DNA from: an uncultured Actinomycetota bacterium
Lineage (GTDB): Bacteria > Actinomycetota > Actinomycetes > JACCUZ01
Assembly (NCBI GenBank): GCA_963697675.1
Contig: CAVOOW010000010.1
Coordinates: forward strand, 73,230-137,229
Length of the DNA: 64,000 bases
Reading direction: 5' to 3'
In this document: positions 3,720-41,633 of the stretch, piece by piece
Layout of the letters: every line of letters starts with the position of its first letter
Numbering within the stretch: position 1 is the first letter of the stretch
Translations under genes and position numbers: made by a program
Notes under the pieces: generated by a model
Database searches by the model: none
The model's input: the letters and a program-made list of their open reading frames with translations, nothing else
What the model was told of the DNA's origin: nothing

Positions 3720-4766
3720 CTATGCGGGGTGCGGCTCTCGGTTGATAGTCGCGTAGTGGGCTTGCTCGAACTCGTTCGGGGTCAGGTAGTCGAGGCTACT
3801 GTGCAGACTCCGGTTGTTGAACCAGTCGACCCAGCCGGCGGTGGCCCACTCGACGTCGGCGATGCCTCGGTAGGCGCCGGCGTGGAAGACGGTGGTGCGG
3901 ATGCACTCGGTCTTGTACAGGCCGATCATCGCTCTCCATGAGTGCGTTGTCGTAGGCGTCGCCGACGGAGCCGATCGACGGGCGGATGCTCCTCGAGGGC
4001 GAGGTGGTCGGTGAACCAGTGGACGTGTATTGCGTGCCGGCGTCCGAGTGACACGATGAGCTGCCCCGGCCGGACCGGGTGTCCTTCACGCTCGCGTTGC
4101 CATGTCGCCATCCGCAGCGGGGTCATGACCAGTGCGACGTCCGCTTGGAGGTCGGCGCAGTGCCAGGCGACGATCTTCTGCGCGAACACGTCCACGACGA
4201 ACGCGACGTAGACGAAGCCCGCCCACGTCCGGACGTAGGTGAAGTCCATGACCCACGTGCCGGTTCGGGGCGGCGGCGGTGAAGTCCCGGTCGAGCAGGT
4301 CCCCGGCACGTTTGCCGTCCTTGCCGGGGATGGTCGTGCGGATGCCCTTACCGCGCCGGACCCCGTCAAGTCCCAAGGCGCTGTCATGGCCCGTCGACCG
4401 GCCTCCGGGGAGGCGCGGCCGGCTGCGCCGGACCAGCGCGCGTCATCTTCCGTCGCCCGTAGAGACCTTCCGGGGTCATCCGGCGAACCCGCCAACCGCC
4501 TGGCGGTGTCCACGGTCCAGGCGAGGTCACGCACCACGTCCATCACCAGGGCGTCGGTCACGGTGCGGGCCGCGACCCGCTGGTCGAGCTACTTCCAGCC
4601 CGGTAGGTCCGTGCGGCGATCTGGCAGCCCTGCTCGCGCAGGACCCGACAGACCGACTCGACCGCACGACCAGCGCCGCGGCACTCGTCGACGAACGCGA
4701 CGATCAACGATTGCGGGCGGTCGGTGAAGTCGGCCCGGGGCGCGGTGCCGGCCTTGCGACCGGTCC
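3720..4766 (-). pseudogene. IS3-family transposase orfB (integrase core), multiple frameshifts
   Basis: Pieces in three frames: DRPQSLIVAFVDE...; RTTIPGKDGKRAGDLLDRDFTAAAPNR; VMDFTYVRTWAGFVYVAFVVDVF; HSDAGTQYTS; IGSVGDAYDNALMES; IGLYKTECI...WVDWFNNRSLHSSLDYLTPNEFE. Confidence 0.75.
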
Positions 4767-6923
4767 GTTTCCCCGGGCCGCCTCCCGAACCCGGCGTGCA
4801 CCTTTCCACGCACCGGGCTCTCCACAAGTCCCGTCTGGCGCGTGTGGTCGTCCTCATCCGGTGATCGGCCACGGCGACGGGAATGACCGATCCCCGGTAT
4901 CGGTAGCGGGTCGTGCTCGACCTTCTGCCGGGTTGAACAGTTCCCGTTCCTCGCTGGCCGGCCACCATCCGCCGCCGCAGTAGCGGCGGCGGAGCTCCTT
5001 CCAGGTGGCCGGCGGTGCTTGCGCCGCAGCCATCGCCAGACCGTCTGCCACACGTAGTGGCTGCAGGTAGCCGAAGGTCGCCGACGACACCCCGGGCCGG
5101 AAGTAGGCGCACCAGCCCCGCAGCACCGGGTTGAGCTGCGGAGCAGGACATCCAGCGGCTGGTTCACCCCGACCTGTCGGCACAGCGTCTTCACCTTGGC
5201 CATCACGGCCCGCAGGGCCTTCTTGGCCGGATAGGTGTAGACGTAGGACCGGCTGGTGCCCCGCTTGCGGTGACGCTGGATGCGCCACCCGAGGAAGTCG
5301 AGGCCCTCGTCGATGTGGGTGATCAGGGTCTTCTCCGGCGACAGGCGCAGGCCCATCGTGGACAAGCACCCCGGCGATCTCCTCTCGCAGCGCTTCGGCG
5401 TCGGCCCTGGTGCCCGCGACCACCAGGCACCAGTCGTCCGCGTACCGGACCAGCCGGTAGTTGGGCAGACCGTGACGGCGCCGTTTCGCCCGTTCCACCG
5501 TCGTGCTGCCGTGGTCCTCCCGGCGGCCCGGCGATGTGCTCGTCCAGGACCGAGAGGGCCACGTTGCTCAGCAGCGGCGACAGGATCGACCCCTGCGGGG
5601 TTCCGGTGGTGGTGTCCCGCAGCGTCGGTCCTCACTGAGGATGCCCGCCTTCAGGAACGCCTTCACCAAGGCCAGGACGCGTTTGTCCCCGACTCGATCC
5701 CGCACCCGGTCCATCAGGGCCGGGTGCGAGATCTCGTCGAAGCAGGCCTTGATGTCGCCCTCCACGATCCACTCATAGAGCGTGGCGATGTCGAGATAGC
5801 GCACCTCGGCCACCGCGTCATGAGCCCGGCGCTTCGGGCGGAACCCGTAGGAACACGGGAGGAAATCCGCCTCGAAGATCGGCTCCAACACCAGCTTCAG
5901 GGACGCCTGGACCACCCGGTCGGTGATCGTCGGCGATCCCCAGACGACGCAGCTTGCCGCCCGCCTTGGGGATCATCCGCTCCCGCACCGGCAGCGGGCG
6001 GAAGCTGCGGTCCTTCAACGCGACCGCAGCCCGTCGAGGAACACCTCGACCCCGCACCGGCCTCCACGATGGACGCGCCGTGCGCCGTCCACCCCGGCCG
6101 TGCGCGCACCCTTGTTGCCCCGCACCCGATCCCACGCCACCAGCAGGAACGCCGGGATCGGCGACGAGGTTGAACAGATCGTCGAACCTGCGATGAGGAT
6201 CATCACGGGCCCAACGGTGCAGCTTGGTCTGGATCTCCAGTACCCGGCGCTCCGCCCGAATCAGCAGCCGAGCTCCGAGCTCGTCGGTATTCACCGGCGA
6301 CACCTCCTGGCATTCCAGCATCCTCACTGCCGACTTGCTGGCCCCCTTCGCCCTGTGCCCGGCTCTCCCGGCCCCGCGGCGGGTCGTCGCTCGGACTACT
6401 ACGAGGCCTCCGCCCCACCCCACGGCCATCAGCCGGCAACGGACCTGCCCACCCGACCGGACTGGCTGCCCGGCACGGACGGGCGACCGCGGGGCGGTTC
6501 CCACGTTCACCACGCAATCGATCGATCAGGGAGGCGCCCAGCTCTACCCCGGCAGCATCGCCACGCCTACGCCGCAGGCCTTCACCGTGGCCTCCCCACC
6601 GACGGAGCTACACGGCTTCGGAGTTGACCCCCACCGACATCCGGCGTGGCCACGCACTGCACACCGGCCCATATCCACCAGATTTGAGCCGGCGCCGCGC
6701 TTACGGGGCTTCAACCACTGGTTCACTCTCGTACACCTTCTGATCTCGCTCGCCGGACCCGCACCGTCTGGCAGTACCAGCACGTCCCGGCTTTGTCAGG
6801 GCTGCTTCCCGCCCTCCCCGGCGTTCCCCGGGTCAGGCTGCCCCCAGCTTCACCAGGCCGCTGCGACGACCCGGCGGGGAGGTCTCTCACCTCCCTCGAT
6901 CACCACGGCGCCTCGTGGCGCAC
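4767..6923 (-). mobile_element. Group II intron (bacterial class) inserted in IS3 orfA
   Basis: 5' end GTGCGcc at 6923 on the minus strand. 3' end is ...gggaaAC at 4767. Domain V is GAGCCCGGTGCGTGG-AAAG-GTGCACGCCGGGTTC, about 50 nt from the 3' end. Joining the exons restores the IS3 orfA frame (...FFAGEL|DRSQ...). Confidence 0.75.
4800..6400 (-). pseudogene. Group II intron reverse transcriptase/maturase, frameshifted
   Basis: RT motifs FLPCSYGFRPKRRAHDAV, IVEGDIKACFDEI, LVRYADDWCLV, MGLRLSPEKTLITHIDEGLDFLGWRI. Maturase X motifs NPVLRGWCAYFRPG, ELRRRYCGGGWWP, TRYRYRG. These are spread over at least four reading frames. Confidence 0.75.
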
Positions 6924-7249
6924 AGCTCCCCCGCGAAGAAAATCGAAGCCCGGAGAATCTCGTTGTCCTCCTCGAGCCGCCGGACCTTCGCCTTCAGCTC
7001 CCGGATCTGGTCCAGCTCCTCCGTCGTGGCTCCCTGACGCTGGCCGCTGTCGACCTGCGCTTGCAAGAACCAGCGACGCACCGACTCCTGCTCAACGTGG
7101 TTGCGCTTCGCGACCGCCTCGGCCGCAGCTGTCGGCGTCGCGTACTCCGAGACGTGCTGCAGCATCTGCTGGACGCAACGCTCCTTCACCTTCGGATCGA
7201 TCTTCTTCGGCACAGGGCCATCCTCCTGGAACTCAGAAGGAGACGGCAT
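6924..7249 (-). CDS. IS3-family transposase orfA (HTH), 5' exon; interrupted by the intron
   Basis: MPSPSEFQEDGPVPKKIDPKVKERCVQQMLQHVSEYATPTAAAEAVAKRNHVEQESVRRWFLQAQVDSG...LEEDNEILRASIFFAGEL, with ATG at 7247-7249. Confidence 0.7.
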
Positions 7250-7272
7250 CAAACCGAGGCGCTTCACAGAAG

Positions 7273-7441
7273 TGGTGGGCCCCGTGGGACTCGAATCCAC
7301 AACCTACGGATTAAAGAGGAATCGGCCTGGTCAATCCCAGGTCAGAGTGTCCGGTGCTCTTCACCTGCGCGGTCGACACTGGACGATCTCTCGTCGGTGC
7401 CGGCTGGCTTTGGAAGCATTGCGGGACTGAGTGCGGAAAGG
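7273..7441 (+). repeat. tRNA-Lys 3'-half repeat, copy A (tRNA part on minus strand, plus conserved arm)
   Basis: tggtgggccccgtgggactcgaatccacaacctacggattaaag matches the revcomp of the tRNA-Lys T-arm, acceptor and CCA. It is followed by aggaatcgg...cccaggtcaga...cacctgcg...ctctcgtcggtgccggctggctttggaagcattgcgggactgagtgcgg. It directly abuts the IS3 end. Confidence 0.7.
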
Positions 7442-8445: not shown

Positions 8446-8865
8446 CTACACCGGGGCGGTGATCGTCGCCTCGGCGACCAGGATGCTCACGTCCGGGGGC
8501 TGCTCGAGAGTGCTGTGGACTGTGCAGGCTCGGGCCACCGCGAGTAGGGCGGGGAGCCGCTCTGGTGGCAACGCCGGTGGGGGAGTGATACGGAGTGTGA
8601 TGCTGGCCACTCGGGCCGGGCGGTCCTGCGACATCTGCCAGCTGGCGTCCACGCGCAGCCCGTCGCGGCAGATGTGGTGGCGGGCCAGGAAGCCACCGGC
8701 GTAGTGCGCCACGCAGGAGGCGAGGCTGGCCACGAACAACTCGACGGGGGTGGGTCCGAGGTCGGTGCCGCCCGTGTCGGCCGGTTGATCGACGATCAGT
8801 TCGTGTCCGCGCACTCGTACGGCGTACCGGTCACCTCCCCGTGCCTTCACAACCATGGCAGCCAT
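8446..8865 (-). CDS. OsmC/Ohr-family peroxiredoxin-like protein
   Basis: GGTDLGPTPVELFVASLASCVA...ITLRI...ACTVHSTL. Confidence 0.75.
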   Translation of the reverse strand: MAAMVVKARGGDRYAVRVRGHELIVDQPADTGGTDLGPTPVELFVASLASCVAHYAGGFLARHHICRDGLRVDASWQMSQDRPARVASITLRITPPPALPPERLPALLAVARACTVHSTLEQPPDVSILVAEATITAPV

Positions 8866-8902
8866 CTCCGCCGTCCTCTCCTGCTTGCGTTCAGCGTCGC
8901 CG

Positions 8903-9412
8903 TCAGATGAACAGGATTTGGGCGCCGTCGGTTTTCTCGATGAAGTCGGCGGCGCTGATGATCGCTTCGACGCCGCCGTAGAGGTCGTTCATGGTCAGGT
9001 GGTTCATGTCGGCGGACATCCGGCAGGCCCACAGGTGCCCGCCGGAGTCGACGATCTGCTCGAGGAACTCCGGGACCTCGGGGACGCCGAGCTCGGCGAT
9101 GGACTTCTTCATCTTCTTGGTGGCGATCGAGGTCATCCACGGCAGGCCGCCCAGGCCTTGCGGCATGTGGGTGGCGGTGTTGCCGAGCATGGTGAACTTC
9201 AGGTCGTCCATGGTCTTCTTGTTGATCAGCTCGAAGCCCCAGAAGGTGAAGAACAGGTGGGTCTCGATGCCTTCACCGAGGGCGGCGTTCGCCAGGATCA
9301 GCCCGGGGTAGGCCATGTCCAGGTTGCCTTTGGAGCAGATGATCGCGAGCTTGCGATCGGTGCGGGCCTCGTCGAACGAGGGGACGAGGGGGGTTGTCTG
9401 GGTGGTGGTCAT
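8903..9412 (-). CDS. DsrE/DsrF-like family sulfur-relay protein
   Basis: Internal start MTTTQTTP (cat at 9410-9412). KLAIICSKGNLDMAYPGLILANAALGEGIETHLFFTFWG matches COG2210 / DsrE-like. Confidence 0.7.
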   Translation of the reverse strand: MTTTQTTPLVPSFDEARTDRKLAIICSKGNLDMAYPGLILANAALGEGIETHLFFTFWGFELINKKTMDDLKFTMLGNTATHMPQGLGGLPWMTSIATKKMKKSIAELGVPEVPEFLEQIVDSGGHLWACRMSADMNHLTMNDLYGGVEAIISAADFIEKTDGAQILFI

Positions 9413-9450
9413 CGCTGGCTCCTTACGGTGGCAGCTTTCTGTTGGCAGCG

Positions 9451-9765
9451 TCAGACGCAGCCGTGGGGTTTGGGTAGGCCGGCGACGTAGGCCATCTTCT
9501 TGGCCGGCTTCTTGGGGAACAGCTCGAACAGCCGCTTGGTCGGGACTCCACCGACGGTCGACACGCGGCGCAGCGTGGCGGTCTCGCCTTGTTGCTGGAA
9601 GTCCTGGCGCAGGAACTTGAGCACGGCCAAGTGTTCGTCGGTCAGTGTGAGGCCGATCTGGGTTGCCAGGGCTTGGCCGAGGTCTTCGTCCCACTCGTCG
9701 TAGGTCGTGAGGAAGCCTTCCTCGTCCACGTGGACCTCGTGCCCGGAGATCGTGGTTACGGGCAT
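9451..9765 (-). CDS. TusE/DsrC-family sulfur-relay protein
   Basis: MPVTTISGHEVHVDEEGFLT...ends ...PKPHGCV, with the penultimate conserved Cys. AGGAGG RBS upstream. Confidence 0.75.
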   Translation of the reverse strand: MPVTTISGHEVHVDEEGFLTTYDEWDEDLGQALATQIGLTLTDEHLAVLKFLRQDFQQQGETATLRRVSTVGGVPTKRLFELFPKKPAKKMAYVAGLPKPHGCV

Positions 9766-11027
9766 GTCACACCTCCTGCTTCTCGGGCTGTTTGTCGGGG
9801 ATCGTCTTGCCGGCCATCGACATGTGCGCTGGAAGCGGGTATCGGGCGGCCGGGCAGCAGCAGGTGCCAGTACATCCACCGGAACGCGAGCTTGCCCCAG
9901 TGGTTGACCCGGGTCTCGGCCAGTAGGCGGAAGGGGCCGACGCGCGGCAGCGGGTAGGTGCCGGGCAGCGGCTCGGTGTCGTAGTTGAAGTCGATCAGCA
10001 GTGCCTTGCCGTCGCCGGCCTCGACGTAGCAGTTGGCGTGCCCGTCGAAACTGCCGGTCATCGGGCGCCCGTCGATGTGGGCCAGGAAGTTCTCGACGAA
10101 CACTTCGACGGAAAAGTGCGCCACCGAGCCGGCCTTGGAGGCCGGGATGTTCGAGGCATCCCCGACGGCGAAGATGTTGTCATGCCCGGTTGCGAGCAGG
10201 GTGTGCTTGTCGACCGGGACGTAGTTGAGCTCGTCGCCCAGCCCGGAGCGGGCGACGTAGTCGGCGCCCATATTCAGCGGGACGGTGACGAGCAGGTCGA
10301 ACGGCACTTCCCTCTCGTCGTAGGACACCAGCGTCTTCCGGTCGGCGTCGATGCGCTCGACGACGAAGTCCGGCTCGAGGGCGATCTTCCGCTCTTCGAG
10401 CATCCCGCCCAGCCGAGCGGAGGCGATTGGTTTGGTGAACGCTCCGGGCAGCGGGGTCACATAGACCAGCTCCACCCGGTCACGCATGCCCCGGCCGCGG
10501 AAATAGGCGTCGGCCAGGAAGGCGAACTCCAGCGGGGCGACCGGGCACTTGATCGGCATCTCGACCACGTGCACCACGACCCGCCCACCGGTGAACGTGC
10601 GCAGTTTGTCGCGTAACGCGAGCGCTCCGTCGAAGGTGTAGAAGTCGTGGATGCTCTCCCGCCACTGACCGCCGTCGAGCATTCCCGGTGTCTGATCCGG
10701 CCGGGGCGCAGTGCCCGTGGCAATCACGAGCTGGTCGTATGGCAGGCACTGGCCGTCCATCAGCCACACAACGTTCTGGTCCGGGACCACCTTGTCGATC
10801 TCGCCAGCCAGGAGCTCGACACCGTTCGGGATGAAACGTCGCGTCGGCTTGACCACATCGCCGGGCGCGGCGGCGCCGAAGGGTAGGAACAGGTAGCCGG
10901 GCTGGTAGTAGTGCACGTCGCTCTGCTCGACAACCGTGATCTGCCAGTCATCGCCAAGCCGGCGTCGCAGCTTGTTGACCACCATCGTCCCAGCGGTCCC
11001 GGCCCCCAGCACGACCAAACGCCTCAT
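9756..11027 (-). CDS. sqr: Sulfide:quinone oxidoreductase-like FAD-dependent oxidoreductase
   Basis: MRRLVVLGAGTAGT Rossmann start (cat at 11025-11027). NAD(P)/FAD-dependent pyridine nucleotide-disulfide fold with SQR-type length and motifs (AVGDASNIP). Confidence 0.7.
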   Translation of the reverse strand: MRRLVVLGAGTAGTMVVNKLRRRLGDDWQITVVEQSDVHYYQPGYLFLPFGAAAPGDVVKPTRRFIPNGVELLAGEIDKVVPDQNVVWLMDGQCLPYDQLVIATGTAPRPDQTPGMLDGGQWRESIHDFYTFDGALALRDKLRTFTGGRVVVHVVEMPIKCPVAPLEFAFLADAYFRGRGMRDRVELVYVTPLPGAFTKPIASARLGGMLEERKIALEPDFVVERIDADRKTLVSYDEREVPFDLLVTVPLNMGADYVARSGLGDELNYVPVDKHTLLATGHDNIFAVGDASNIPASKAGSVAHFSVEVFVENFLAHIDGRPMTGSFDGHANCYVEAGDGKALLIDFNYDTEPLPGTYPLPRVGPFRLLAETRVNHWGKLAFRWMYWHLLLPGRPIPASSAHVDGRQDDPRQTAREAGGVTCP

Positions 11028-11658
11028 CGCTGCCACCTCACTCTTCTGCACTTCAACGCTATGAGCCTTGCTGGTGTGGCGGAACTGCCATTCGTCCTGA
11101 CCTGGAAGGACGTACGGCACGAAGCTGGCTTGGCCCAACCCATCCGGGCCGTGGCAGGAGAAACCTGCGGGAGCCGATCCCGTCGGGGGCCGAGCCGATC
11201 GTCCAACCCGTGCCGGCGACTCGGCGGCTCACCGCTTCAGGAGCGGAGGCGGGACTTTGGGCGGGCTGGTTGACGGATCGTGCTGCATCGGGTCCTTGTC
11301 CTGTGCGCCCTCCTACTGATGACCGGCATCCGCAATCCGACCCCGGGCAGACTTCGAAGCCACGGGTCTCGCGCTCAGCGGAGAGCTGGATGCGCCGCTC
11401 GTCGAAACATCGACGTGGTGGCACGAGACATCTACGGCTCTGACGGCATCGACCTGTCGCCGGCGGTCGCGAAACGACTACCTTTCCACCTGAGCTGCTG
11501 AGGGCGACACAGCCTCTCGGCAGCTGGGCGCCAAAACGCAACGCATCGGCATTTCATCCGTTCGACGCGCCGTGACTTTCGACCCTGACCCTCGCCCATC
11601 ACCGGCTATAACATGCGAGCGACGACGCTGATTCGGTGCCGACATCAGGAGGCGCGCG

Positions 11659-12147
11659 ATGAGCATTCCCGACGACGTCAGGGGGTCTATCCGTCACGAC
11701 GAGGTCGAGGACCCTGGGGCAACGAACCCTCCGACCGACCACCGTGGCCTGCGTGTACTCGGCTTCGAGGAATGCCTAGAACGGTTGCGGACGGCACCGG
11801 TGGGGCGGCTGGCGTTCGTGGACACGGGCGAGCCTGTTGTGTTCCCTGTCAACCACGTTATCGACGGGGTTGACGTTGTCTTCCGGACATCGTGGGGCTC
11901 CAAACTCCAGGTCGCCGAGAATTCCGGCGTTGTCGCATACGAGGTCGACGGGTACGACAGCCGGGGTGAGACCGGTTGGAGTGTCGTCGTGAAGGGCACA
12001 GCCCAGCTCGCGTGTGAGAGTGTCGACACCGACCGCTACGACCAGCTCGGCCTGCGGTCCTGGGCCGACCTCAAGGGCCTCGGCTTCTGGGTGCGGATCC
12101 GTCCGGTCGAGATCACCGGGCGAGAGGTCATCCCAGCGCCGGGCTGA
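11659..12147 (+). CDS. Pyridoxamine 5'-phosphate oxidase family (FMN/F420-binding split-barrel) protein
   Basis: GRLAFVDTGEPVVFPVNHVIDGVDVVFRTSWGSKL...GWSVVVKG. Confidence 0.7.
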   Translation: MSIPDDVRGSIRHDEVEDPGATNPPTDHRGLRVLGFEECLERLRTAPVGRLAFVDTGEPVVFPVNHVIDGVDVVFRTSWGSKLQVAENSGVVAYEVDGYDSRGETGWSVVVKGTAQLACESVDTDRYDQLGLRSWADLKGLGFWVRIRPVEITGREVIPAPG

Positions 12148-12477: not shown

Positions 12478-12724
12478 TGCGGACTTTTGCGGACCGGCGT
12501 CACCTACGACGATCCTCAACCTCAAAGCGCAACGCGCTGACCTGCGGAAACGTGGTGGGCCCCGTGGGACTCGAACCACAACCTACGGATTAAAAGAGGA
12601 TTCTGGCCATCAGCAACGTCCCAGGTCAGACCGTCCCAGTGCCTGTCACCTGCGTAGAGGACACCGGATGACTCTCGTCGGTTCCGGCTGGTTTCGGAAG
12701 CATTGCGGACTCAGTGCGGACCAG
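12478..12724 (+). repeat. tRNA-Lys 3'-half repeat, copy B (native-type downstream flank + tRNA 3' half + conserved arm)
   Basis: atgcggacttttgcggaccg...ctcaaagcgcaacgcgctgacctgcggaaacg | tggtgggccccgtgggactcgaaccacaacctacggattaaaag | aggattctggcc...cccaggtcaga...cacctgcg...ctctcgtcggttccggctggtttcggaagcattgcggactcagtgcggaccag. Confidence 0.75.
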
Positions 12725-16885: not shown

Positions 16886-17004
16886 TGCGGACTCTTGCGG
16901 ACTGTGGTCGCCACGACGAAGTTCAATCTCACAGCGCAACACGCTGACCTGGCAAAACGTGGTGGGCCCCGTGGGACTCGAACCCACAACCTACGGATTA
17001 AAAG
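16886..17004 (+). repeat. tRNA-Lys 3'-half repeat, copy C (flank + tRNA 3' half, truncated by IS110)
   Basis: agatgcggactcttgcggactg...acgacgaagttcaatctcacagcgcaacacgctgacctggcaaaacg | tggtgggccccgtgggactcgaacccacaacctacggattaaaagtccg, then the IS110 leader. Confidence 0.75.
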
Positions 17005-18600
17005 TCCGACCGAGGCCGTGCCGGACGGTGACGACTGATGCTCGATGCGACCGTTTGTGCAGGTCAGCGACCTAGAGCCCTTCGGGCTCGCCGTGGTTCG
17101 CGAAGATTCTCCGTGGCGGCGCGCGCCTCTTCTTGTCGCGGCTGTGGTTGGCGAGGACGCTGGGTTGGTCCGTTCCGGTAGGACACCGATTGCCCTTGTA
17201 GTGCCTGTGAGCGTGTAGGTCAGCATGGTGGTGGAGGGCTGCCACGGGAACCGTGGATTGTTGCCTTGAGCACGAGCGTCAGCCTTCAGGATTTCCTTGC
17301 CTTCCCCGGGACGGGCATCGCCATCGTCCGCGGGTTGAGGAGGAGGAACAGCCGATGGATCTGATGCACCCGCGGTGTGCGGGACTGGATGTGTCCAAGC
17401 GCGACGCGAAAGTCTGTGTGCGGGTGGCCAGTGGCGGGCGGTCGGCTGCTCGTTCCACGGTGACGACCTGGGGGGCGGTGACCAACCAGGTGCTGGCGTT
17501 GCGGGAACACCTGATCGGCGAGGCGGTCACGTTGGTGGTGATGGAGGCCACCGGGGACTACTGGAAGCCGTTCTACTACCTGCTCGAAGACTGTCCGTTC
17601 GAGGTGATGCTGGTCAACGCCCGGCATGTGAAGAACCTGCCGGGCCGCAAGACCGACGTCTCCGATGCGGCGTGGCTGGCTCAGCTCGGGGCGCACGGGC
17701 TGGTGCGTGGCTCGTTCGTGCCGCCCGCACCGATCCGGGCGCTGCGGGATCTGACCCGGACCCGGACCACGATGGTGCGCGAGCGCGCCAAGGAGATCCA
17801 GCGGTTGGAGAAGTTGCTGGAGGACACCGGGATCAAGTTGTCCTCGGTGGCCACCGACATCAGCGGGGTGTCCGGGCGGGCGATGCTGGAGGCGCTGGTC
17901 AGCGGCCAACGCGACCCGGCCGTACTTGCGGAGCTGGCGAAACGCCGGCTGCGCACGAAGATCCCGGAACTGACCGAGGCCCTGACGGGACGGTTCACCG
18001 ACCACCATGCGTTCCTGACCCGCCTGCATCTGGATCTGATCGACCAGCACACCCATGCCGTTGAGGAGCTCACCGCCCGGATGGAGGTGGTGATCGAGCC
18101 CTTTCGTGGCGCCCGGGACCTGATCACCACGATCCCCGGGATCAGCGTCCTGGTCGCGGATGTGATCATCGCCGAGACCGGCGCCGACATGGCCCGGTTC
18201 CCCACCGCGGGGCATCTCGCGTCCTGGGCCGGGACGTGTCCGGGAAGCAACGAGTCCGCCGGTCGGGTCAAGTCGACCAAGACCCGACCCGGCAACCCCT
18301 ACCTCAAAGGTGCGCTCGGGATCGCGGCGATGTCCGCGGCTCGCAGCCAGACACCTACCTGGCCGCGAAGTACCGGCGCATCGCGTCCCGGCGCGGACCG
18401 ATCAAGGCCGTCGTCGCCGTCGAGCACGCGATTCTGATCGCGATCTGGAACATGGTCACCAACGGCGTCTTATACGCCGACCTCGGTGGCGACTACTACA
18501 CCAAGCTCAACCCAGACAAGACGAAGCAACGCGCCCTGAACCAGCTCAGACAGATGGGCTACGAGGTCACCCTCAACCCGCTACCAATCGCGCGGTGAAG
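17005..18600 (+). mobile_element. IS110-family insertion sequence (350-nt 5' leader + recombinase gene)
   Basis: IS110-type DEDD transposase preceded by a long non-coding leader. No terminal inverted repeats, as is typical for the family. Boundaries are approximate. Confidence 0.65.
17355..18598 (+). pseudogene. IS110-family transposase, single frameshift near 18350
   Basis: MDLMHPRCAGLDVSKRDAKVCV...VVMEATGDYWKPFYYLLED...MLVNARHVKNLPGRKTDVSDAAWLAQL. The C-terminus DTYLAAKYRRIASRRGPIKAVVAVEHAILIAIWNMV is in a second frame (ORF 18236..18598). Confidence 0.75.
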
Positions 18601-23084: not shown

Positions 23085-23272
23085 CGCCCGGGACCTACCG
23101 CCGTTCGGGCGCCGGCTGCTGCGCCCCACGGGCCGGCACTGCTCTGCGTCGTACAACCGGTAGTGCTGCATCCCAATGCCCACGTAGATGCGCTATGGGG
23201 CTGACAGGTAACCACGCTGGCACCATCGGCGAGGTTGAGTGCTGGTGCCAGTGGACGTCATCGCAGGTCAAA

Positions 23273-23446
23273 GCGGTGGGCCCCGTGGGACTCGAACCCA
23301 CAACCTACGGATTAAAAGAGGATTCTGGCCGCTGTCAACGCCCCAGGTCAGAGCGTCCCGCTGCCTTTCACCTGCGTAAACGACACTGGACGACTCTCGT
23401 CGGTTCCGGCTGGTTTCGGAAGCATTGCGGACTCAGTGCGGACCAG
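23273..23446 (+). repeat. tRNA-Lys 3'-half repeat, copy D (tRNA 3' half + conserved arm; non-native flank)
   Basis: ggtgggccccgtgggactcgaacccacaacctacggattaaaag | aggattctggccgctgtcaacgccccaggtcagagc...cacctgcg...ctctcgtcggttccggctggtttcggaagcattgcggactcagtgcggaccag. Confidence 0.75.
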
Positions 23447-23990
23447 ACGAACCAGCCCCGCGGTCTACACCTCTCTGGAGTCCGGCTGGTGGCGGTGTAC
23501 GCGTGGCATCGAGTATCTCGGCTCGGCGCTTCACCGCGGGGAAGCGGGTGTTGACGCGCGAGGCGCCTCTTCTTCTCAGTGGTGCGCGATCGTGGCGGAA
23601 TGCAGCGACGTCAACAACTCGGCGAGGCTCACGACGGGCGGCAGGGTCGGCGACCCCGGGCTCAATAAGCTGACGATGTCGCCACCATCACGGCGTGCGC
23701 TGCGCAATGGGGACCGGCGATCGGGGCGGACGCTGATCGCTTGGTTGACTGGGGCATCGCATTCGCGGGGGATGATTGCCCTCCAGCTCGCCACGTCACC
23801 GAACGCCTCGCACGAACGAATACACGCCTACCTGGACCTCGCCTTTCAGGCCCCGAGATGAGCCACGGCTTGCGGCAGCCGCGGGCGCACGTCTGCCAAG
23901 AAGGACAATTGCCGCGTGCCATTACGGATAGCCGCATGCGGTGCTCGAGAAACCGCCGCCTCCGCGCCCATCGCGCCTACCATCCGGGTC

Positions 23991-26567
23991 ATGGACCTGT
24001 GGGAGCGTGGGTCGGCGCTCGACCTGCTCGATGGGCTGCTGCGCGAGAGCGGCAACCGCGGACGTGTCGCGCTCGTCGCCGGTGAGGCGGGCATCGGCAA
24101 GACCTCGCTGGTGACCGAGTTCGCCCGGCGTGCGGGCTCGCAAGCCCGGGTGCTCTGGGGGGTCTGCGACCGATTGGTCACACCCCGAGCCTTGGGCCCG
24201 CTTCATGACATCGGCCGGTTGACCGGTGGTGTGCTCGCGGAACGCGTGAGCGCGGGGGCGACCCAGGAGGCGATCTTCGACGCATTCCTCGACGAGATCT
24301 CGCAGCCGGCCGAGCGGTTAGGCCCGGTGGTCGTCGTGGAGGACGCGCACTGGGCCGATGAGGGGACTCTCGACTGGCTGGCGTTCCTCGGTCGTCGGCT
24401 CGATCGCCGCTCGACGCTGCTGGTGCTGACCTATCGCAGTGACGAGGTGGGTCCGGAGCATCCGCTGCGCGGTGTCCTGGCGGCGTTGCCAGCCTCCACC
24501 GCGCGGCGTGTGCCGGTCGCTGCGCTGACCCGTGACTGTGTCCGCGAACAGGCACGCCTGGCCGGACGGGACGCGGATTCCGTCTACCGGCTGGCGGGTG
24601 GCAACCCGTTGCTCGTGACCGAGCTGCTCAAGAGCGACAGCGACGACGTGCCCGGCGCGGTGCAGGACCTGATCCTCGATCGGATCCGCGCGCTTTCCGC
24701 GCCGGCCCGCGACGTGGCGCACCTGGTGGCCGTCGTACCGACCCGTGCGGATGCGGTCGTCGCGGCATCGTCCGGCGCCGTCGACGAGTGCATCGCAGCG
24801 GGCGTACTGGTCGAGTCCGGTGACGGTGTGTCCTATCGGCACGAGCTGCTGCGTAGTGCCGTCGAGGACTCGCTGTCGCCGGCTCGCCGCGCCGCGCTGC
24901 ATGGGCAGGTGCTGGAGATCCTGTCCGGCCAGCCGGGCGTCGACCCGGGTCGGCTGGTGCACCACGCCCGCGCCGCCCGCGACGCCGACGCAGTGCTCCG
25001 GTTTGGTCAGCTGGCAGGGGCGAGTGCGGTGCGGCAGGGCGCGCATCGGGAGGCCGCGGCGCACTTCCAGGCCGCTGTCGCCCACCGTGCGCGAATCCCG
25101 GAGCCGGAGCAGGCCGCGCTGCTCGAGCAGTACGCAACCGCGGCCAACCTGGCCGGGTGGCACGAAGAGGCGTTGCACGCGCGCGAGGCCGCTGCCGTGA
25201 TCAGGGAGACGCTCGGACAGTCCGACCTGTTGGGCGAGAACCTGTGCTGGATCTCCAGGTTGTCCTGGTGGACCGGGCGCATCGCCTCGGGGCGTGAGGC
25301 GGGGGCGCGTTCGGTCACCGTGCTCGAGGGCGCGCCACCGTCGACGTACCTCGCCCAGGCCTATGCGAACCAGTCGGCGCTGCACCTCACGACGCACGAG
25401 CTCGACGACGCCGTCCGGCTGGCGGAGCGGGCGCGTGACCTCGCCGAGGAGTTCGGCGACGAGGTGGTCGCGATCTACTCGACCATCACCCTGGGCACGG
25501 CGTGGCTCGTGACCGACCCGCCGCGAGGTCGCGCGGTGCTCGAGGCGGCGCACCAACGGGCGCTCGCGGGGGGCTACGTCGAGCACGCTGCGCGGGCGTT
25601 GGCGAGCCTGTGCCTCGTGCCTGCGGACGAGCTGGCGGAGTACGACGCTGCCGCTCCGGCGATGGACCGCTCGCTTGCGTTCAACGAGGAGCACGACCTT
25701 GAGGGCATGTTGCTTATGGTGCTCGGCGCGCGGGCAAAGCTGCGACTGGAGCGCGGCGACTGGACCGATGCGCTGACCGACGCCGAGGCCACGCTGGCGC
25801 GGTCCGGCCTGCGAGGCGTCAACGCGGCGTTGCCGTTGGTGACCAGGGGTCGCATCGAGGCCGCCCGCGGTGCCCCGGATGCGCTGGCCACGCTGGACCT
25901 GGCGTTGCGCGCGGCGGAAGGTGTCGGCGACGTGCCCTTGGTCGTGCCCGTCGCGGATGCTCGCGCGGAGTACTGGCTGTGGTGTGGCGAACTCGAGCAC
26001 GCGCGCGAGGAGGCGCGGCGTGGCCTTTCGTTTGCCGGCGCTGCCGGTCAGCCGTTCCTGATCGGTCGGCTCGCGTGGCGGCTGTGGCAGTGCGGTGGCA
26101 CGGACGAGATGCCGGCGACGGCAGCACTGCCTTTCCGGCAGATGGTCCACGGCGAATGGTCCGAAGCCGCCGCAGAGTGGGAGCGGCGCGGTGGCACCTA
26201 TCTGCGCGCTGAAGCGCTGGCCCTCGGTGACGAGCCGGCAGCCGGTGAGGCGTTGCGCATCCTGGACGGTCTGGGCGCGACGCGCCCGGCGGACCATCTG
26301 CGGGCGCAGCTGCGCAAGCGCGGGATCCTGCGGGTGCCGCGCGGCCCGCGCCGTGCGACCGCGGCCAACGCGGCCGGGCTGACGCCGCGACAAGTTGACG
26401 TGTTGGTCCTGCTGGTCGAGGGCCTGTCGAACGCGCAGATCGCGGCGCGGCTGACGTTGTCGCCGAAGACCGTCGATCATCACGTCCACGCTTTGTTGCG
26501 CACGCTCGGCGTGGCCAACCGCGGCCAGGCGGTCGCCGTGGCACACCGGCGCCAACTCGTGGGTTGA
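23991..26567 (+). CDS. Large ATP-dependent transcriptional regulator, LuxR family (N-terminal AAA/STAND ATPase, TPR-like middle, C-terminal LuxR HTH)
   Basis: MDLWERGSALDLL...VAGEAGIGKTSLV (Walker A)...VVVVEDAHWAD...C-terminal LTPRQVDVLVLLVEGLSNAQIAARLTLSPKTVDHHV. Confidence 0.8.
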   Translation: MDLWERGSALDLLDGLLRESGNRGRVALVAGEAGIGKTSLVTEFARRAGSQARVLWGVCDRLVTPRALGPLHDIGRLTGGVLAERVSAGATQEAIFDAFLDEISQPAERLGPVVVVEDAHWADEGTLDWLAFLGRRLDRRSTLLVLTYRSDEVGPEHPLRGVLAALPASTARRVPVAALTRDCVREQARLAGRDADSVYRLAGGNPLLVTELLKSDSDDVPGAVQDLILDRIRALSAPARDVAHLVAVVPTRADAVVAASSGAVDECIAAGVLVESGDGVSYRHELLRSAVEDSLSPARRAALHGQVLEILSGQPGVDPGRLVHHARAARDADAVLRFGQLAGASAVRQGAHREAAAHFQAAVAHRARIPEPEQAALLEQYATAANLAGWHEEALHAREAAAVIRETLGQSDLLGENLCWISRLSWWTGRIASGREAGARSVTVLEGAPPSTYLAQAYANQSALHLTTHELDDAVRLAERARDLAEEFGDEVVAIYSTITLGTAWLVTDPPRGRAVLEAAHQRALAGGYVEHAARALASLCLVPADELAEYDAAAPAMDRSLAFNEEHDLEGMLLMVLGARAKLRLERGDWTDALTDAEATLARSGLRGVNAALPLVTRGRIEAARGAPDALATLDLALRAAEGVGDVPLVVPVADARAEYWLWCGELEHAREEARRGLSFAGAAGQPFLIGRLAWRLWQCGGTDEMPATAALPFRQMVHGEWSEAAAEWERRGGTYLRAEALALGDEPAAGEALRILDGLGATRPADHLRAQLRKRGILRVPRGPRRATAANAAGLTPRQVDVLVLLVEGLSNAQIAARLTLSPKTVDHHVHALLRTLGVANRGQAVAVAHRRQLVG

Positions 26568-26627
26568 GCGGGCCCCTCGCGCCCGCGGGGTGCGAGGCTC
26601 CGCAGTTCGTGGACAGGAGAGTGCGCC

Positions 26628-28253
26628 GTGGGGATGTTGGAACTGGCCGGGGATGCGTACGCGCGGCGTGCCTGGGGCGAGGCGTTTGCGCGGTTGACCG
26701 CCGCGGATGCGGATCAGCCGCTGACCCCGCTGCACCTCCAGCGTCTGGCGGTCGCTGCGCACTGCATCGGGAAGACGGACGAGTCCACCGACGCCTGGGG
26801 GCGTGCGCACGCTGCCTGCCTTGAGTGCGGCGACGTCGAGAATGCCGCTTTGGCTGCGGCCTGGTGCGCGTTCGGACTGATCACTCGTGGCGAGTTCGCG
26901 CTAGGCAGCGGTTGGTTGGGGCGCGCGCAAGCGCTCTGCGAGGAACACAATCTCGACTGCCCGGCACGGTGGTTCGTTCTCGGGCAGATGGCCGCGGCGA
27001 GCATGTTCAGCGGCAACTACGCGGCCGCATTGGAGATGTTCCAAGAGACCCAGGGCAATGCCGACCGGATGCGTGATGCCAACGGCATGACGCTGAGCAG
27101 GCTCGGCCGGGCACAGTGCCTCACCCAGCTCGGTCGCGGTCGCGAAGGTCTGCAGTTGTTCGACGAGGTGATGGTCTTTCTCAGCACCGACGAGGTGTCG
27201 CCGCTCGCCGCTGGTCTCGCGTACTGCGCCGCGATCGAGTCCTGCCAGCGGATTCTCGACGTCCGCCGCGCCCAGGAGTGGACGGCCGCACTGACGCGCT
27301 GGTGCGACGAGCAACCCGATCTGGTGCCTTACCGCGGCAACTGCCTGGTTCACCGCGCCGAAATCCTCATGTTGCACGGCGCCTGGCCGGAGGCCTACGA
27401 CCAAGCTGAACGCGCCCGCGACTGGCTCGCCGACGTCGCGGGCACCTCCGTCGGCAATGCGTATTACCGGCTCGGCGAGCTGCACCGGCTCCGCGGGGAG
27501 TACCTCGAGGCCGATGCGGCGTATAAGCAAGCAAGCTTGTACGGACAGGAAACCCAACCGGGCCTCGGGCTGCTGCGCCTCGGGCAAGGTCACATCGACT
27601 CCGCGACCGCGGCGATCCGCCGCGCGCTCGACGAGACTACGGATGTCATCTTGCGTGCGCATCTACTCGGCCCGCAGGTCGATGTGGCGCTCGCCGCCGA
27701 CAACGTGCCGACCGCCCGCGCGGCAGCCGACGAGCTGTCCGAGATCGCCGCGCGGTTCGACGTGCCGCTGCTGCGCGCCATGGCGATGCACGCCGATGGC
27801 GCGGTGACGTTGGCCGAGGGCGACGCACCGGCCGCATTGGGGCGCCTGCGTTCGGCCTGGACGCGTTGGCAGGAGCTAGAGGTGCCGTATTACGGCGCCC
27901 GGGTGCGCGTGCTGATCGGCGAGGCGTGCCGCGCGCTCGGCGATGAGGACACCGCCGAGATGGAGCTCGATGCGGCCCGCTGGGTCTTCCAGGAACTGGG
28001 CGCAGCGCCCGACCTCGCCAGGGTGCAGAAGCTGTCGAAGCGGCCTGCGACAAGGGCACCGGGCGGCCTGTCGCTGCGGGAGACGCAGGTGCTGCGGCTG
28101 GTTGCCGCTGGCAAGACCAACCGGGCGATCGCCGCCGAACTGTTCCTCAGTGAGAAGACCGTGCATCGGCATTTGAGCAACATCTTCACCAAGCTCGACG
28201 TCGGCTCACGGTCCGCCGCGACGGCCTACGCGTTCCAGCACGACCTGGTCTGA
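26628..28253 (+). CDS. LuxR-family transcriptional regulator with TPR-like N-terminal domain
   Basis: C-terminal LSLRETQVLRLVAAGKTNRAIAAELFLSEKTVHRHLSNIFTKL. Confidence 0.8.
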   Translation: MGMLELAGDAYARRAWGEAFARLTAADADQPLTPLHLQRLAVAAHCIGKTDESTDAWGRAHAACLECGDVENAALAAAWCAFGLITRGEFALGSGWLGRAQALCEEHNLDCPARWFVLGQMAAASMFSGNYAAALEMFQETQGNADRMRDANGMTLSRLGRAQCLTQLGRGREGLQLFDEVMVFLSTDEVSPLAAGLAYCAAIESCQRILDVRRAQEWTAALTRWCDEQPDLVPYRGNCLVHRAEILMLHGAWPEAYDQAERARDWLADVAGTSVGNAYYRLGELHRLRGEYLEADAAYKQASLYGQETQPGLGLLRLGQGHIDSATAAIRRALDETTDVILRAHLLGPQVDVALAADNVPTARAAADELSEIAARFDVPLLRAMAMHADGAVTLAEGDAPAALGRLRSAWTRWQELEVPYYGARVRVLIGEACRALGDEDTAEMELDAARWVFQELGAAPDLARVQKLSKRPATRAPGGLSLRETQVLRLVAAGKTNRAIAAELFLSEKTVHRHLSNIFTKLDVGSRSAATAYAFQHDLV

Positions 28254-28341
28254 CACGCGAATGGGTATTTCTTCCGATGCTGCGGCCCCGGCGTCGCTCC
28301 TACCGTTCCCAGCAACGAACAACGACTGGGAGCGATCCGAG

Positions 28342-29454
28342 ATGGGCGACAACACCGAGTACGTCGAGACGGTCATCGTCGGGGGCGGGCAGGCCGGCCT
28401 CGTCGCGGGATACGAGCTGAAGAAGCGGGGCCGCGAATTCGTCATCCTCGACGCGCAGGCCCGCGTGGGTGACGCATGGCGCAACCGCTGGGACTCGCTG
28501 CGCTTGTTCACTCCAGGGCGTGACTGCGAGTTGCCCGGCCTGCGATTTACCGCTCAGCGGAGCCTGGCGCCGACAAAGGACGAGATGGCCGACTACTTGG
28601 AGGCGTACGCCGCGCACCACAACCTGCCTGTGCGCAATAGCGCCCGCGCGACGGGGCTGAGCAAGTCCGGCAACCTGTTCCTGGTCACGACGACGTCTGG
28701 CGAGTTCACCGCGACGAACGTCATCATCGCAAGCGGTTCCTACTGCGATCCGAAGGTGCCGCTCTTCGCCGACGACCTCGACCCGCACATCGTGCAGCTG
28801 CACTCGCAGGCATACCGCAACCCATCGCAACTGCAGCCCGGCGGCGTGCTGCTCGTCGGCGGTGGCAACTCCGGAGCCGACATCAGCCTCGACGTCGTCC
28901 AAACGCGTCCTACATGGTTGGCCGGGCCAGAGGTGCCTCACATCCCGCCGAACATCGACAAGTGGTTCGCACGGATGGTCGTGGTCCGAGCCGTGCGGTT
29001 CGCGCAGCGCAACGTCCTGTGCCTGCGCACGCCCATTGGCCGCAGGGCCGCGCCGAAGATGCGTGGCAAGGCAACCCCGCTGATCCGCGTCAAGCCGAAG
29101 TGGCTGGCCCGCGCCGGCGTGCAGCGCGTCGGTCGGGTCGTCGGCGTCCACGACGGGCTCCCGCAGCTCGAGGACGGTCAAGTACTTGACGTCACCAACG
29201 TGATCTGGTGCACCGGCTATCGGCACGACTTCCCGTGGATCGACCTCGACGCTGCGTTCGACGAGCACGGCTCGCCGGTCCATGCACGCGGCGTGTCCAC
29301 CGAGGTCACCGGGCTCTACTTCGTCGGCCTTGAGTTCCAGTTCGCGCTGGCATCGGCGTCACTCTGGGGAGTCGCGCGCGATGCGGCGTACGTCGTCTCG
29401 CACCTGGACCACCACATGACCACTCGGCCGAAGCTCGCCCCCGCGGCGGCCTGA
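28342..29454 (+). CDS. Flavin-containing monooxygenase-like NAD(P)/FAD-binding oxidoreductase
   Basis: MGDNTEYVETVIVGGGQAGLVAGYEL...second dinucleotide site LLVGGGNSGADIS. Confidence 0.75.
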   Translation: MGDNTEYVETVIVGGGQAGLVAGYELKKRGREFVILDAQARVGDAWRNRWDSLRLFTPGRDCELPGLRFTAQRSLAPTKDEMADYLEAYAAHHNLPVRNSARATGLSKSGNLFLVTTTSGEFTATNVIIASGSYCDPKVPLFADDLDPHIVQLHSQAYRNPSQLQPGGVLLVGGGNSGADISLDVVQTRPTWLAGPEVPHIPPNIDKWFARMVVVRAVRFAQRNVLCLRTPIGRRAAPKMRGKATPLIRVKPKWLARAGVQRVGRVVGVHDGLPQLEDGQVLDVTNVIWCTGYRHDFPWIDLDAAFDEHGSPVHARGVSTEVTGLYFVGLEFQFALASASLWGVARDAAYVVSHLDHHMTTRPKLAPAAA

Positions 29455-30147
29455 CGGCCGCGTCGCCGGCTGCGCACCGGCGCCAACTCGTGTTGGGGCG
29501 GCCGCTCGCGCCTACGATCCGGTCATGGAGCTGTGGGAGCGCGCGGATGCGCTCGAGCTGCTCGATGCTGTGTTGCGCAAGTGTGCCGGTGAGGGGGGTG
29601 GCGTTGGTCGCCGGCGAGGCGGGGATCGGGAAGCCGTCACTGGTGGCCGAGGTCGCGCGACGCTCGCGGGAGCGGGTGCGGGTGCTGTGGGGTGCGTGCG
29701 ACCGGTTGGTGACGCCGCGCGCGTTGGGGCCGTTGCAGGAGCCGGCCCGCCAGACCGGAGGTGAGCTGGCCGCGCGGTTGTCGGCCGGGGGCCGGGCAGG
29801 AGGCGATCTTCGCGGCGTTCCTCGACGAGCTGTCCGATCCACCGCACGGGTTGGGTCCGATGGTGGTGGTGGAGGACGCGCACTGGATGGATGAGGCGAC
29901 CCTCGACTGGCTGGCCTTCCTTGGTCGGCGTACCGATCGCCTGTCGGTGCTGCTAGTGGTGACCGACCGGGACGACGAGATGGGGCCCGAGCATCCGTTG
30001 CGGGGTGTCCTCGGGTCGCTGCCGGCGGCGAGGTCGCGTCGGGTCGTGGTGCCGGAATTGTCGCGGGAGTGCGTGTTGGAGCAGGCGCGGCTCGCCGGGC
30101 GGGACGCGCAGTCGGTAGCCGCGCACCGGTTGAACCTGCTGCCTTGA
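29455..30147 (+). pseudogene. Truncated, frameshifted paralogue of the N-terminus of the AAA-LuxR regulator, preceded by a 35-nt copy of the regulator's 3' end
   Basis: gcgcaccggcgccaactcgtgttgg is about 85% identical to 26535-26567. MELWERADALELLDAVL...VALVAGEAGIGKPSLVAEVARR...VVVEDAHWMDEATLDWLAFLGRR...GPEHPLRGVLGSLPAA is spread over three frames. Confidence 0.6.
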
Positions 30148-30199
30148 TCGAAGCTGATCTCTACGCGCAACTTAGGGAGATCTCCCGATTCAGCCCCTA

Positions 30200-31644: not shown

Positions 31645-31727
31645 CCCGCACAACAGCACGAGACACATCGGCACCGGCCCGGTGCCACCCGCCCATCGCA
31701 CCACCCAACAAGTTAAGGAGTACTGGC

Positions 31728-41630: not shown

Positions 41631-41633
41631 GGG

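Follow-up and report, generated by a model that had tools for sequence, protein, structure and literature searches.

We analysed a 64-kb stretch of DNA from an uncultured Actinomycetota bacterium (contig CAVOOW010000010.1; hereafter the window), which carries on its minus strand, between positions 8446 and 11027, a cassette of four genes headed by a sulfide:quinone oxidoreductase (SQR). In transcriptional order these genes encode the SQR (9756–11027), a TusE/DsrC-like sulfur-relay protein (9451–9765), a DsrE2-like sulfur carrier (8903–9412) and an OsmC-family protein (8446–8865). All four open reading frames (ORFs) are intact and have a high GC content at third codon positions (GC3). A first-pass annotation had described a block of four co-directional, tightly packed genes with a 10-nt overlap and gaps of about 35–40 nt, and we could confirm this arrangement: the SQR and TusE-like genes overlap by 10 nt (9756–9765) and the next two gaps are 38 nt and 37 nt.

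The first gene encodes a 423-aa protein that begins at an ATG (MRRLVVLGAGTAGT). It matches PF07992 and the NCBIfam model for type III SQR, NF049943, the latter with 614 bits (cut-off 525) over residues 2–400. The name of this model carries the words "selenoprotein subtype"; the window SQR has cysteine, not selenocysteine. The N-terminal GxGxxG fold that binds FAD is represented by GAGTAGT at residues 8–14. Human SQOR was the best match in PDB (1e-41) and both redox cysteines aligned. These are Cys161 (PIKCPVAP) and Cys333 (HANCYVEAG), each of which was kept in 89 of 89 homologues, and we take their partners in human SQOR to be Cys201 and Cys379 (mature numbering). In other type III SQRs the redox cysteines are found at about Cys159 together with Cys331 or Cys339 (PMC13047784, PMC10989961). 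SQR-like representatives that are further off (≤45% identity) often lack one or both cysteines. The first-pass annotation had allowed for such a loss here; the window SQR retains both and, by its cysteines, belongs to the clade predicted to be catalytically complete. A C-terminal block shared by the whole family, NHWGKLAFRWMYWHLLLPGR, presumably forms the segment that binds the membrane; the tail beyond it is frameshifted in the window.

The second gene encodes a 104-aa protein of the DsrC family (PF04358, 2e-30, 105.8 bits; TIGR03342, 76.2 bits against a cut-off of 53.5). Its C-terminal arm ends in AGLPKPHGCV, fitting the family pattern GLPKPxGC(V/I). The penultimate residue of this arm, Cys103 (the "CysA" position), also aligned to DsrC structures and was kept in 87 of 87 homologues. 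The "CysB" position is alanine in the window and alanine or serine in all 87 homologues, with cysteine in 0/87. Two narrower identities were rejected. A bona fide dissimilatory DsrC requires two cysteines, with CysB 10–11 residues upstream of CysA, and the protein fails this requirement. An orthologue of the TusE that acts in tRNA 2-thiouridine synthesis was rejected on the equivalog model NF008562, which gave only 57.8 bits against a cut-off of 191.

The third gene encodes a 169-aa protein that matches PF13686, the DrsE_2 family (7.5e-31, 107.6 bits), and falls below the cut-off of the curated DsrE2 equivalog NF047629 (93.4 bits against 210). Its best match in PDB was 2QS7 (5.8e-11), to which the active-site cysteine aligned, as it did to 3PNX. 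Cys130 (WACRMS) was present in 82 of 82 homologues and Cys26 (IICSKG) in 77 of the 82. The entry 2QS7 is the Saccharolobus DsrE2B (PMC11094781). The window protein, in which no signal peptide or transmembrane segment is apparent, is best described as DsrE2B-like. The fourth gene encodes a 139-aa protein of the OsmC/Ohr thiol peroxidase family (PF02566, 4e-15, 56.5 bits) whose family cysteines, Cys51 and Cys114, aligned to PDB entry 9wo1 and were both kept in 11 of 11 homologues. We found no signal peptide in any of the four cassette proteins, which argues that their chemistry is cytoplasmic.

A profile of the cysteine-bearing SQR clade was then scanned against one genome per species and recovered 80 loci with 61–76% identity. 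These loci belong to Actinomycetes, Acidimicrobiia and Nitriliruptoria, together with two metagenome-assembled genomes (MAGs) of Trueperaceae and one Acidobacteriota MAG. By tblastn, the order SQR, DsrC-family gene, DsrE2-like gene was found in 78 of the 80 loci; in the remaining two the contig stops directly after SQR. A representative whose SQR has 56% identity carries the same triad of SQR, TusE-like and DsrE2-like genes. The genes outside the triad are almost wholly unrelated between loci. Out-of-frame ORFs overlapping dsrC, which were recovered with an iterative local DsrE2 hidden Markov model (HMM), were discarded as artefacts (GC3 about 0.45). The synteny in other genomes bears out the first-pass description of a functional sulfide-handling module. 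In literature searches on SQR with OsmC, DsrE or TusE we found no published description of a TusE-type or OsmC-containing SQR operon. The cassette is a real, widely conserved actinobacterial unit, and its pairing of SQR with carriers is hardly studied.

Two SQR homologues are fused to the second protein of the triad. In P0122 (581 aa) and P0162 (562 aa) a single polypeptide begins with a full type III SQR, which a linker joins to a DsrC domain at the C terminus. They end in ...GLPKPRGCV or ...GIPKPVGCI, so that each has a single terminal cysteine. The two proteins represent independent clusters and have different linkers.

The limits of the unit can be read from near relatives of the window. 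In loci L085–L088 and L090 the cassette has about 83–93% nucleotide identity to the window, and in L001 it has 85%. Among these close relatives the cassette, together with a promoter of about 100 bp, was found in at least six different contexts. Nucleotide homology begins about 90–100 nt upstream of the SQR ATG (at about 11112–11124) and continues to the end of OsmC. These limits indicate that the inherited unit consists of the promoter, SQR, the TusE-like gene and the DsrE2-like gene, with OsmC added. All close relatives have OsmC, with the partial exception of L001, where only a 62-aa OsmC-homologous ORF is left. When L001–L004 were added to the 80 scan loci, OsmC adjoined the triad in only about 6 of the resulting 84 loci. 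OsmC is a lineage-specific fourth gene outside the core; the first-pass annotation had listed it as part of the module, which is true of every close relative though not of the wider family.

When the window DNA was compared with P0001 and P0003, one extra C came to light in a C-run at 9837–9839 (minus strand). Relative to all close relatives this is a +1 frameshift, which replaces the last ~25 residues of SQR. In the close relatives SQR ends in ...PIPLPAHMSMAGKTIPxKQPEKQEV and its TGA lies 1 nt before the TusE ATG, with a GGAGG Shine-Dalgarno sequence inside the SQR tail. The 10-nt overlap seen in the window therefore arises because the extra C shifts the frame. The frameshift lies beyond the last conserved SQR block. 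The extra C may be a sequencing error in a homopolymer, or it may be a real mutation and a sign of early decay.

SQR converts sulfide to enzyme-bound sulfane sulfur while a quinone is reduced. It is the entry enzyme of sulfide detoxification and of sulfide-based respiration, and which molecule accepts its sulfane sulfur is a central question whose answer depends on the enzyme type: the human enzyme uses glutathione or sulfite, and type I enzymes release polysulfide. Type II SQRs, which are the closest solved relatives of the window SQR, require an acceptor for the sulfane sulfur. Our preferred interpretation, which we consider probable on balance, is that the cassette forms a self-contained operon which moves horizontally and serves to oxidise sulfide in the cytoplasm and to traffic sulfur bound to proteins. 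The conserved triad and the fusions lead to the simplest form of this interpretation, in which the TusE-like arm would be the acceptor at the SQR active site and the DsrE2B-like protein its relay partner. A direct hand-off of persulfide from SQR to protein carriers would thus be well supported, if indirectly, and as to which carrier first contacts SQR, the fusions lead us to favour TusE.

The gene identities, their conservation, the invariant cysteines and the fusions were shown above, and the cis-motifs and the mobility are shown below; in the scheme that follows, which way and between which proteins sulfur passes, what OsmC does and which regulator acts are inferred. A monotopic, cytoplasm-facing type III SQR would oxidise H2S at Cys161/Cys333–FAD and pass the electrons to menaquinone. 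Cys103 on the TusE-like arm would take the sulfane sulfur from SQR as a persulfide, so that the sulfur would neither leave as free polysulfide nor be passed to a small thiol, and the persulfide would be exchanged between the TusE-like protein and Cys130 of the DsrE2B-like protein. Transfer of a persulfide from DsrE-fold proteins such as DsrEFH to the arm cysteine of DsrC/TusE proteins is reported in PMC3397948, as cited in PMC11094781. The carriers would then deliver sulfur to enzymes encoded elsewhere, the likeliest being the CstR-type set of persulfide dioxygenase (PDO)-rhodanese and TauE found in relatives. OsmC, in this lineage only, would act as a two-cysteine thiol-dependent reductase and probably clears (hydro)peroxide or per/polysulfide by-products. 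A response regulator of the DevR/DosR/OsdR type probably drives the conserved promoter on hypoxia or sulfide, and in other lineages a CstR-type persulfide-sensing repressor may act as well.

The first-pass annotation had proposed that sulfur passes to DsrE/TusE-type carriers instead of to the usual SQR partners, which it found missing. Using actinobacterial partner proteins in tblastn we found no homologue of CsoR/CstR, ArsR, rhodanese, PDO or TauE in the 64 kb, and locally built HMMs for CsoR/CstR, ArsR, rhodanese and PDO likewise found none in a six-frame translation of the window. The partners are thus missing from the window. They are not missing from the family, since at about 19 of the 84 loci (a lower bound, from tblastn with few queries) the 8 kb around the cassette include a gene of the CsoR/CstR family or one for rhodanese, PDO-rhodanese or rhodanese-TauE. 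Such genes often directly adjoin the cassette, for example in L001, L004, L017, L026 and L065. In the close relative L090 an ArsR-rhodanese regulator, a PDO-rhodanese and a rhodanese lie 3–6 kb from the cassette, and the Salinispora locus has a divergent ArsR-family gene. The presence of partner genes beside the cassette in relatives makes it more probable that the carriers feed the canonical persulfide-oxidising enzymes than that they replace them; here these enzymes would be encoded elsewhere in the genome. The best explanation for the absence of partners from the window is that the cassette travels by itself as the cargo of a small tRNA-Lys island. Of the first-pass proposal, the hand-off to carriers agrees with the invariant cysteines and the fusions, while the word "instead" does not agree with the partners that adjoin the cassette in relatives.

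If "instead" were correct, the cassette would form an alternative pathway complete in itself and take the place of PDO, rhodanese, TauE and the persulfide-sensing repressor, with sulfur either ending on the DsrE/TusE carriers or being disposed of without dioxygenation. We consider this improbable. It would account for the absence of the usual partners from 64 kb, for a cassette that moves autonomously with its own promoter, and for the ~77% of related loci that have no partner gene within ±8 kb. However, CstR, PDO-rhodanese, rhodanese or TauE genes directly adjoin the cassette in about one fifth of related loci, CsoR/CstR-type operators occur in 16 of 81 promoters, small carriers are no terminal sink for a catalytic flux of sulfur, and what is visible of the source genome amounts to 64 kb.

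The mobility of the cassette is evident from its surroundings in the window. Repeat copies A (7254–7315) and B (12534–12595, with a 1-nt deletion), both on the plus strand, had been noticed in the first pass on either side of the block, and they proved to be real: each is a copy of the 3′ half of tRNA-Lys. They form the att-like left and right boundaries of a 5.2-kb segment. This segment is filled by the SQR cassette and a divergent gene for a PPOX-class (Pyridox_ox_2) protein (11659–12147, plus strand; PF12900, 1.1e-26), a homologue of which adjoins the cassette in L001 and L087. A and B are direct repeats of 44–62 nt; counting both, the window has five partial copies that correspond to the 3′ ~46 nt of tRNA-Lys(ttt). 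The further copies lie at 16941–17002, 23255–23316 and 33065–33126, and the source of the repeats is the tRNA-Lys(ttt) gene at 41632–41707. Including the tRNA gene there are six copies in the window, where 0 are expected by chance. A search with a 38-nt core found five, compared with none in 100 shuffles; copy B escapes this search because of its 1-nt deletion. Most copies also share a common right flank of ~130–150 nt and a left flank of ~60–100 nt.

The region from 7.3 to 41.6 kb is thus a tandem array of five segments (4.4–9.8 kb) with conserved ends and a tRNA fragment at each boundary, of which the cassette occupies the outermost. To judge from these repeats, the array is the putative signature of repeated site-specific integration at tRNA-Lys, and its segments look like elements that are related to one another and now lack an integrase (cis-mobilisable-like). 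In the island ORFs that were scanned we detected no tyrosine integrase, but we did detect transposases of IS3 and IS110 and remnants of group II introns. Neither the ORFs in the 1.1-kb interval from repeat A to OsmC nor those beside repeat B had a Pfam match, and an Rfam scan returned nothing beyond four tRNAs. From tRNA-Lys rightwards the window consists of ordinary actinobacterial core chromosome, with pst genes, PitA, GlnR, a GNAT protein and aminotransferases. Carriage of the cassette as the cargo of a small tRNA-Lys island explains its isolated context in the window.

Several other features of the island and its surroundings were recorded. Group II intron reverse-transcriptase fragments occupy 4558–7300, with an IS3 orfA-like ORF at 6887–7300; an IS110-family transposase lies at 17253–18437 and an IS3-type integrase-core ORF at 40324–41085, beside the tRNA. 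The segment at 23916–32297 encodes two large LuxR-family regulators of the AAA_16-GerE (883 aa) and TPR-GerE (541 aa) types, two flavin monooxygenase-like proteins and a second OsmC-family protein (31728–32297), and it contains a 300-nt direct repeat at 24253 and 29786. A 102-nt inverted repeat (53328–53429 and 54518–54619, 89% complementary) encloses about 1.1 kb in the interval from the PitA-like gene to the pst genes.

Upstream alignments of seven loci with unrelated flanks identified a conserved promoter/operator stretch that travels with the cassette (11056–11124, minus strand). In the window and its nearest relatives we found, in this order, the palindrome CGTCCT-N8-AGGACG (~11094–11113, minus strand), GAATGGCAG, about 23 nt, and the −10-like TAGCGT (11056–11061, minus strand), which lies at −34. 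A Shine-Dalgarno sequence, GAGGTGG, directly precedes the ATG at 11027, just outside this stretch. The stretch includes a degenerate DevR/OsdR-like box, AGGACGAATGGCAG (11085–11098, minus strand, −71 from the ATG). This half-site is centred about 30 nt upstream of TAGCGT, which is a class-II-activator-like position, and this position is conserved in L001, L004, L086, L087 and L090.

Clearer elements were found in the promoters of the wider family. A GGGAC-N4-G[GT]CCC box is present at −55 to −133 in 37 of 81 promoters, compared with 7% of 200-nt windows drawn at random from these loci. The spacer of this box, whose positions were left unconstrained, is non-random and biased to CTTC, and perfect sites include GGGACTTAAGTCCC. 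The box has DevR/DosR architecture and matches the Streptomyces OsdR/DevR consensus AGGGCCGATCGGCCCT (PMC5069765). A CsoR/CstR-type operator, ATACCC-N3-5-GGGGTAT, is present in 16 of the 81 promoters compared with 0.55% of background windows. These operators often lie near the −10 region, and some of the promoters carry a DevR/OsdR-type box too. The co-occurrence of the two boxes suggests that type III sqr in Actinomycetota may be under dual control by sulfane sulfur and by hypoxia or sulfide. Loci with one or both types of element include L002, L007, L009, L015, L018, L028 and L031, and further L062, L064, L071, L079 and L081. There was no CstR-type operator in the 200 nt upstream of the window's cassette, nor in its nearest relatives, and no response regulator was found in the window. 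A scan with the sigma-70 consensus found no promoter, and terminator-like matches were no more frequent than in shuffles.

The gene context of the cassette in relatives also bears on its regulation. In L087 and L001 the cassette lies amid Usp, Rv2632c-like, Acg-type nitroreductase and PPOX genes, and L087 additionally has a response regulator with a GerE domain. PPOX-class genes are typical of DevR/OsdR dormancy regulons, and the window cassette has retained its PPOX-class neighbour. This context supports a link between the cassette and dormancy regulons. The haem kinase DosS of M. tuberculosis binds H2S and activates the Dos regulon (PMC9062744), and sqr of B. licheniformis is jointly controlled by a CsoR-family sensor of sulfane sulfur and a sulfide-sensing two-component system of the NarL family (PMC9918477). 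These precedents make control of the DevR and CstR types plausible. For the window's own cassette, DevR/OsdR-type regulation is weakly suggested by the box upstream of SQR.

A second operon architecture was observed among the relatives. An HTH_17-type regulator with 2–3 conserved cysteines heads the operon in at least 22 of the 80 loci; its stop codon overlaps the SQR start, so that the two genes are translationally coupled. In 28 loci an ORF of ~180–280 aa is inserted between SQR and the TusE-like gene, and its cluster representative is a weak match to DUF1641 (25 bits against a cut-off of 21). Examples of this architecture are L034:7318–9922, L016:3116–5873 and L068:7250–9823. The DUF1641 proteins HucM, ForE and Ncp scaffold quinone-reducing enzymes and conduct quinones in Huc, ForCE and NDH-2 (PMC13524794). 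By analogy, a complex of SQR with DUF1641 seems possible as a natural extension.

The nearest published parallel to the cassette is an operon of the verrucomicrobial methanotroph Methylacidiphilum fumariolicum SolV, MFUM_v2_0219-0221, which encodes a type III SQR, TusA and DsrE2 and was 1.7-fold up in sulfide-adapted cells (PMC10205796). In both cases a type III SQR is followed by two small cytoplasmic carriers, one of them DsrE2-type, and there is no PDO in the operon. In Methylacidiphilum, however, the first carrier is TusA and there is no OsmC, whereas the cassette has a carrier of the TusE/DsrC family. The Methylacidiphilum carriers were not analysed further in that report (PMC10205796). 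A type III SQR with protein sulfur carriers has thus been seen once before, and then with TusA.

The cassette also resembles the CstR-regulated cst and sqr-pdo-rhodanese operons of heterotrophic bacteria in that SQR is coupled to dedicated sulfurtransferases for persulfide handling. Known examples of such operons are cstR-tauE-cstA-cstB-sqr of S. aureus and sqr-pdo of Cupriavidus. The B. licheniformis operon has the arrangement yrkD...nreBC-sqr-pdo (PMC9918477) and offers a parallel to the CsoR-family repressor and the NarL-family response regulator that may be paired in the family of the cassette. A subset of the relatives shares with the cst and sqr-pdo operons a CsoR/CstR-type operator and an adjacent CstR, PDO-rhodanese, rhodanese or TauE gene. 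Those operons, however, contain a type II (or other) SQR, carriers of the rhodanese or TusA type, and PDO within the operon, whereas the window cassette has a type III SQR with TusE-like and DsrE2B-like carriers, and PDO and regulator are in neither the cassette nor the window.

DsrE-family and DsrC-family proteins are likewise encoded together in the DsrEFH-DsrC and (rhd-)tusA-dsrE2 relays of Allochromatium vinosum and of sHdr systems (PMC3397948, PMC11094781), and DsrE2 genes are widely clustered with genes for sulfur carriers. Unlike dissimilatory sulfur oxidisers, the window has no DsrAB, DsrMK or sHdr genes. Its DsrC-family protein lacks CysB, which rules out a DsrC trisulfide/disulfide cycle, and there is a single DsrE2B-like gene rather than DsrEFH. 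In E. coli TusBCD-TusE, as in the cassette, a single-cysteine TusE-type protein takes a persulfide from a DsrE-fold partner. Unlike the E. coli system, the cassette has no tRNA-modification context and its genes are linked to a respiratory flavoprotein.

The likeness to TusBCD-TusE bears on a second alternative, in which the cassette would serve the biosynthetic mobilisation of sulfur. SQR would make TusE/DsrE2 persulfide for thio-cofactor synthesis or tRNA thiolation, as in the TusBCD-TusE-MnmA pathway, when cysteine desulfurase is limiting, for example in hypoxia. A relay from a DsrE-fold protein to TusE is indeed the logic of 2-thiouridine synthesis in E. coli, and the single-cysteine TusE-type architecture as well as the dormancy-type promoter motif and neighbours would fit. 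However, the window protein failed the TusE equivalog model, we noticed neither MnmA nor any further thiolation gene in the neighbourhoods that were inspected, and what the carriers are strictly linked to is a respiratory quinone reductase, joined in relatives by genes for persulfide detoxification. We therefore regard a biosynthetic role as unlikely.

A third alternative, for which we see little chance, is that the chemistry runs in reverse or differs altogether. The flavoprotein would act on carrier-bound persulfide, either as a quinol-dependent persulfide/polysulfide reductase or as an oxidase of a protein-bound substrate, with the DsrC-like protein as substrate rather than acceptor. DsrC carries substrate for DsrAB and DsrK, the SQR-DsrC fusions fit a substrate-carrier relation equally well, and the distant SQR-like relatives that lack one or both cysteines point to functional plasticity in the wider family. 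Against this, both SQR cysteines are invariant in the present clade, and menaquinol (~−74 mV) is a poor reductant for S0/HS− (~−270 mV). Furthermore, the characterised type III SQRs use quinones to oxidise sulfide, according to Lencina et al. as cited in PMC10205796.

Least likely of all is that the cassette is a decaying passenger, inactive cargo on a degraded island with no current function in this organism: the frameshift in the SQR 3′ tail, the segments without integrases, the surrounding insertion sequences and group II intron remnants and the 62-aa OsmC remnant in L001 would agree with decay, but the frameshift lies past the last conserved SQR segment and may be a single-base homopolymer sequencing error, the four ORFs are otherwise intact with high GC3 and all functional cysteines, and the promoter is conserved.

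Several observations weigh against our preferred interpretation of a mobile operon for sulfide oxidation and protein-bound sulfur trafficking. The literature still describes DsrE2-type proteins as unclear in function (PMC11094781). With no regulator, PDO or rhodanese in 64 kb, the downstream fate of the sulfur is not visible in the window. When the fusion P0162 was modelled with AlphaFold from its single sequence, the predicted local distance difference test score (pLDDT) was 33, too low for the model to be used. The frameshifted SQR tail also counts on this side. As to regulation, the strict palindrome GGGNC-N4-GNCCC is absent upstream of SQR and has one site in the window (51133), which is below chance, and a looser DevR-like pattern has 24 matches in the window, so that AGGACGAATGGCAG taken alone is not significant. 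Because no strict DevR site lies near the operon, the regulatory claim for the window comes down to positional conservation.

A more far-reaching proposal, which we regard as possible but distinctly less probable than not, concerns Actinomycetota and a few other phyla. Here the type III SQR would use a dedicated protein acceptor and not a small molecule: the single-cysteine TusE-like arm would enter the SQR active site and come out as a persulfide, backed by a DsrE2B-like trimer. The operon would be an unrecognised member of the DevR/DosR/OsdR hypoxia-dormancy regulon, whose haem kinase may itself sense H2S. If this were true, actinobacteria that are dormant or short of oxygen could rid themselves of sulfide and at the same time draw on it to maintain menaquinone in the reduced state, and the second architecture would connect this SQR to a quinone-transport scaffold made of DUF1641.

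Of the SQR classes, type III is understood least, and its near-obligatory genetic coupling to TusE-like and DsrE2-like proteins in this family, which the fusions reinforce, points to a protein-acceptor mechanism. Such a mechanism would give DsrE2-type proteins a defined function. In addition, the DevR/OsdR-type and CstR-type elements would link sulfide oxidation to the actinobacterial hypoxia response, a link that is of interest since H2S modulates the Dos regulon of M. tuberculosis.

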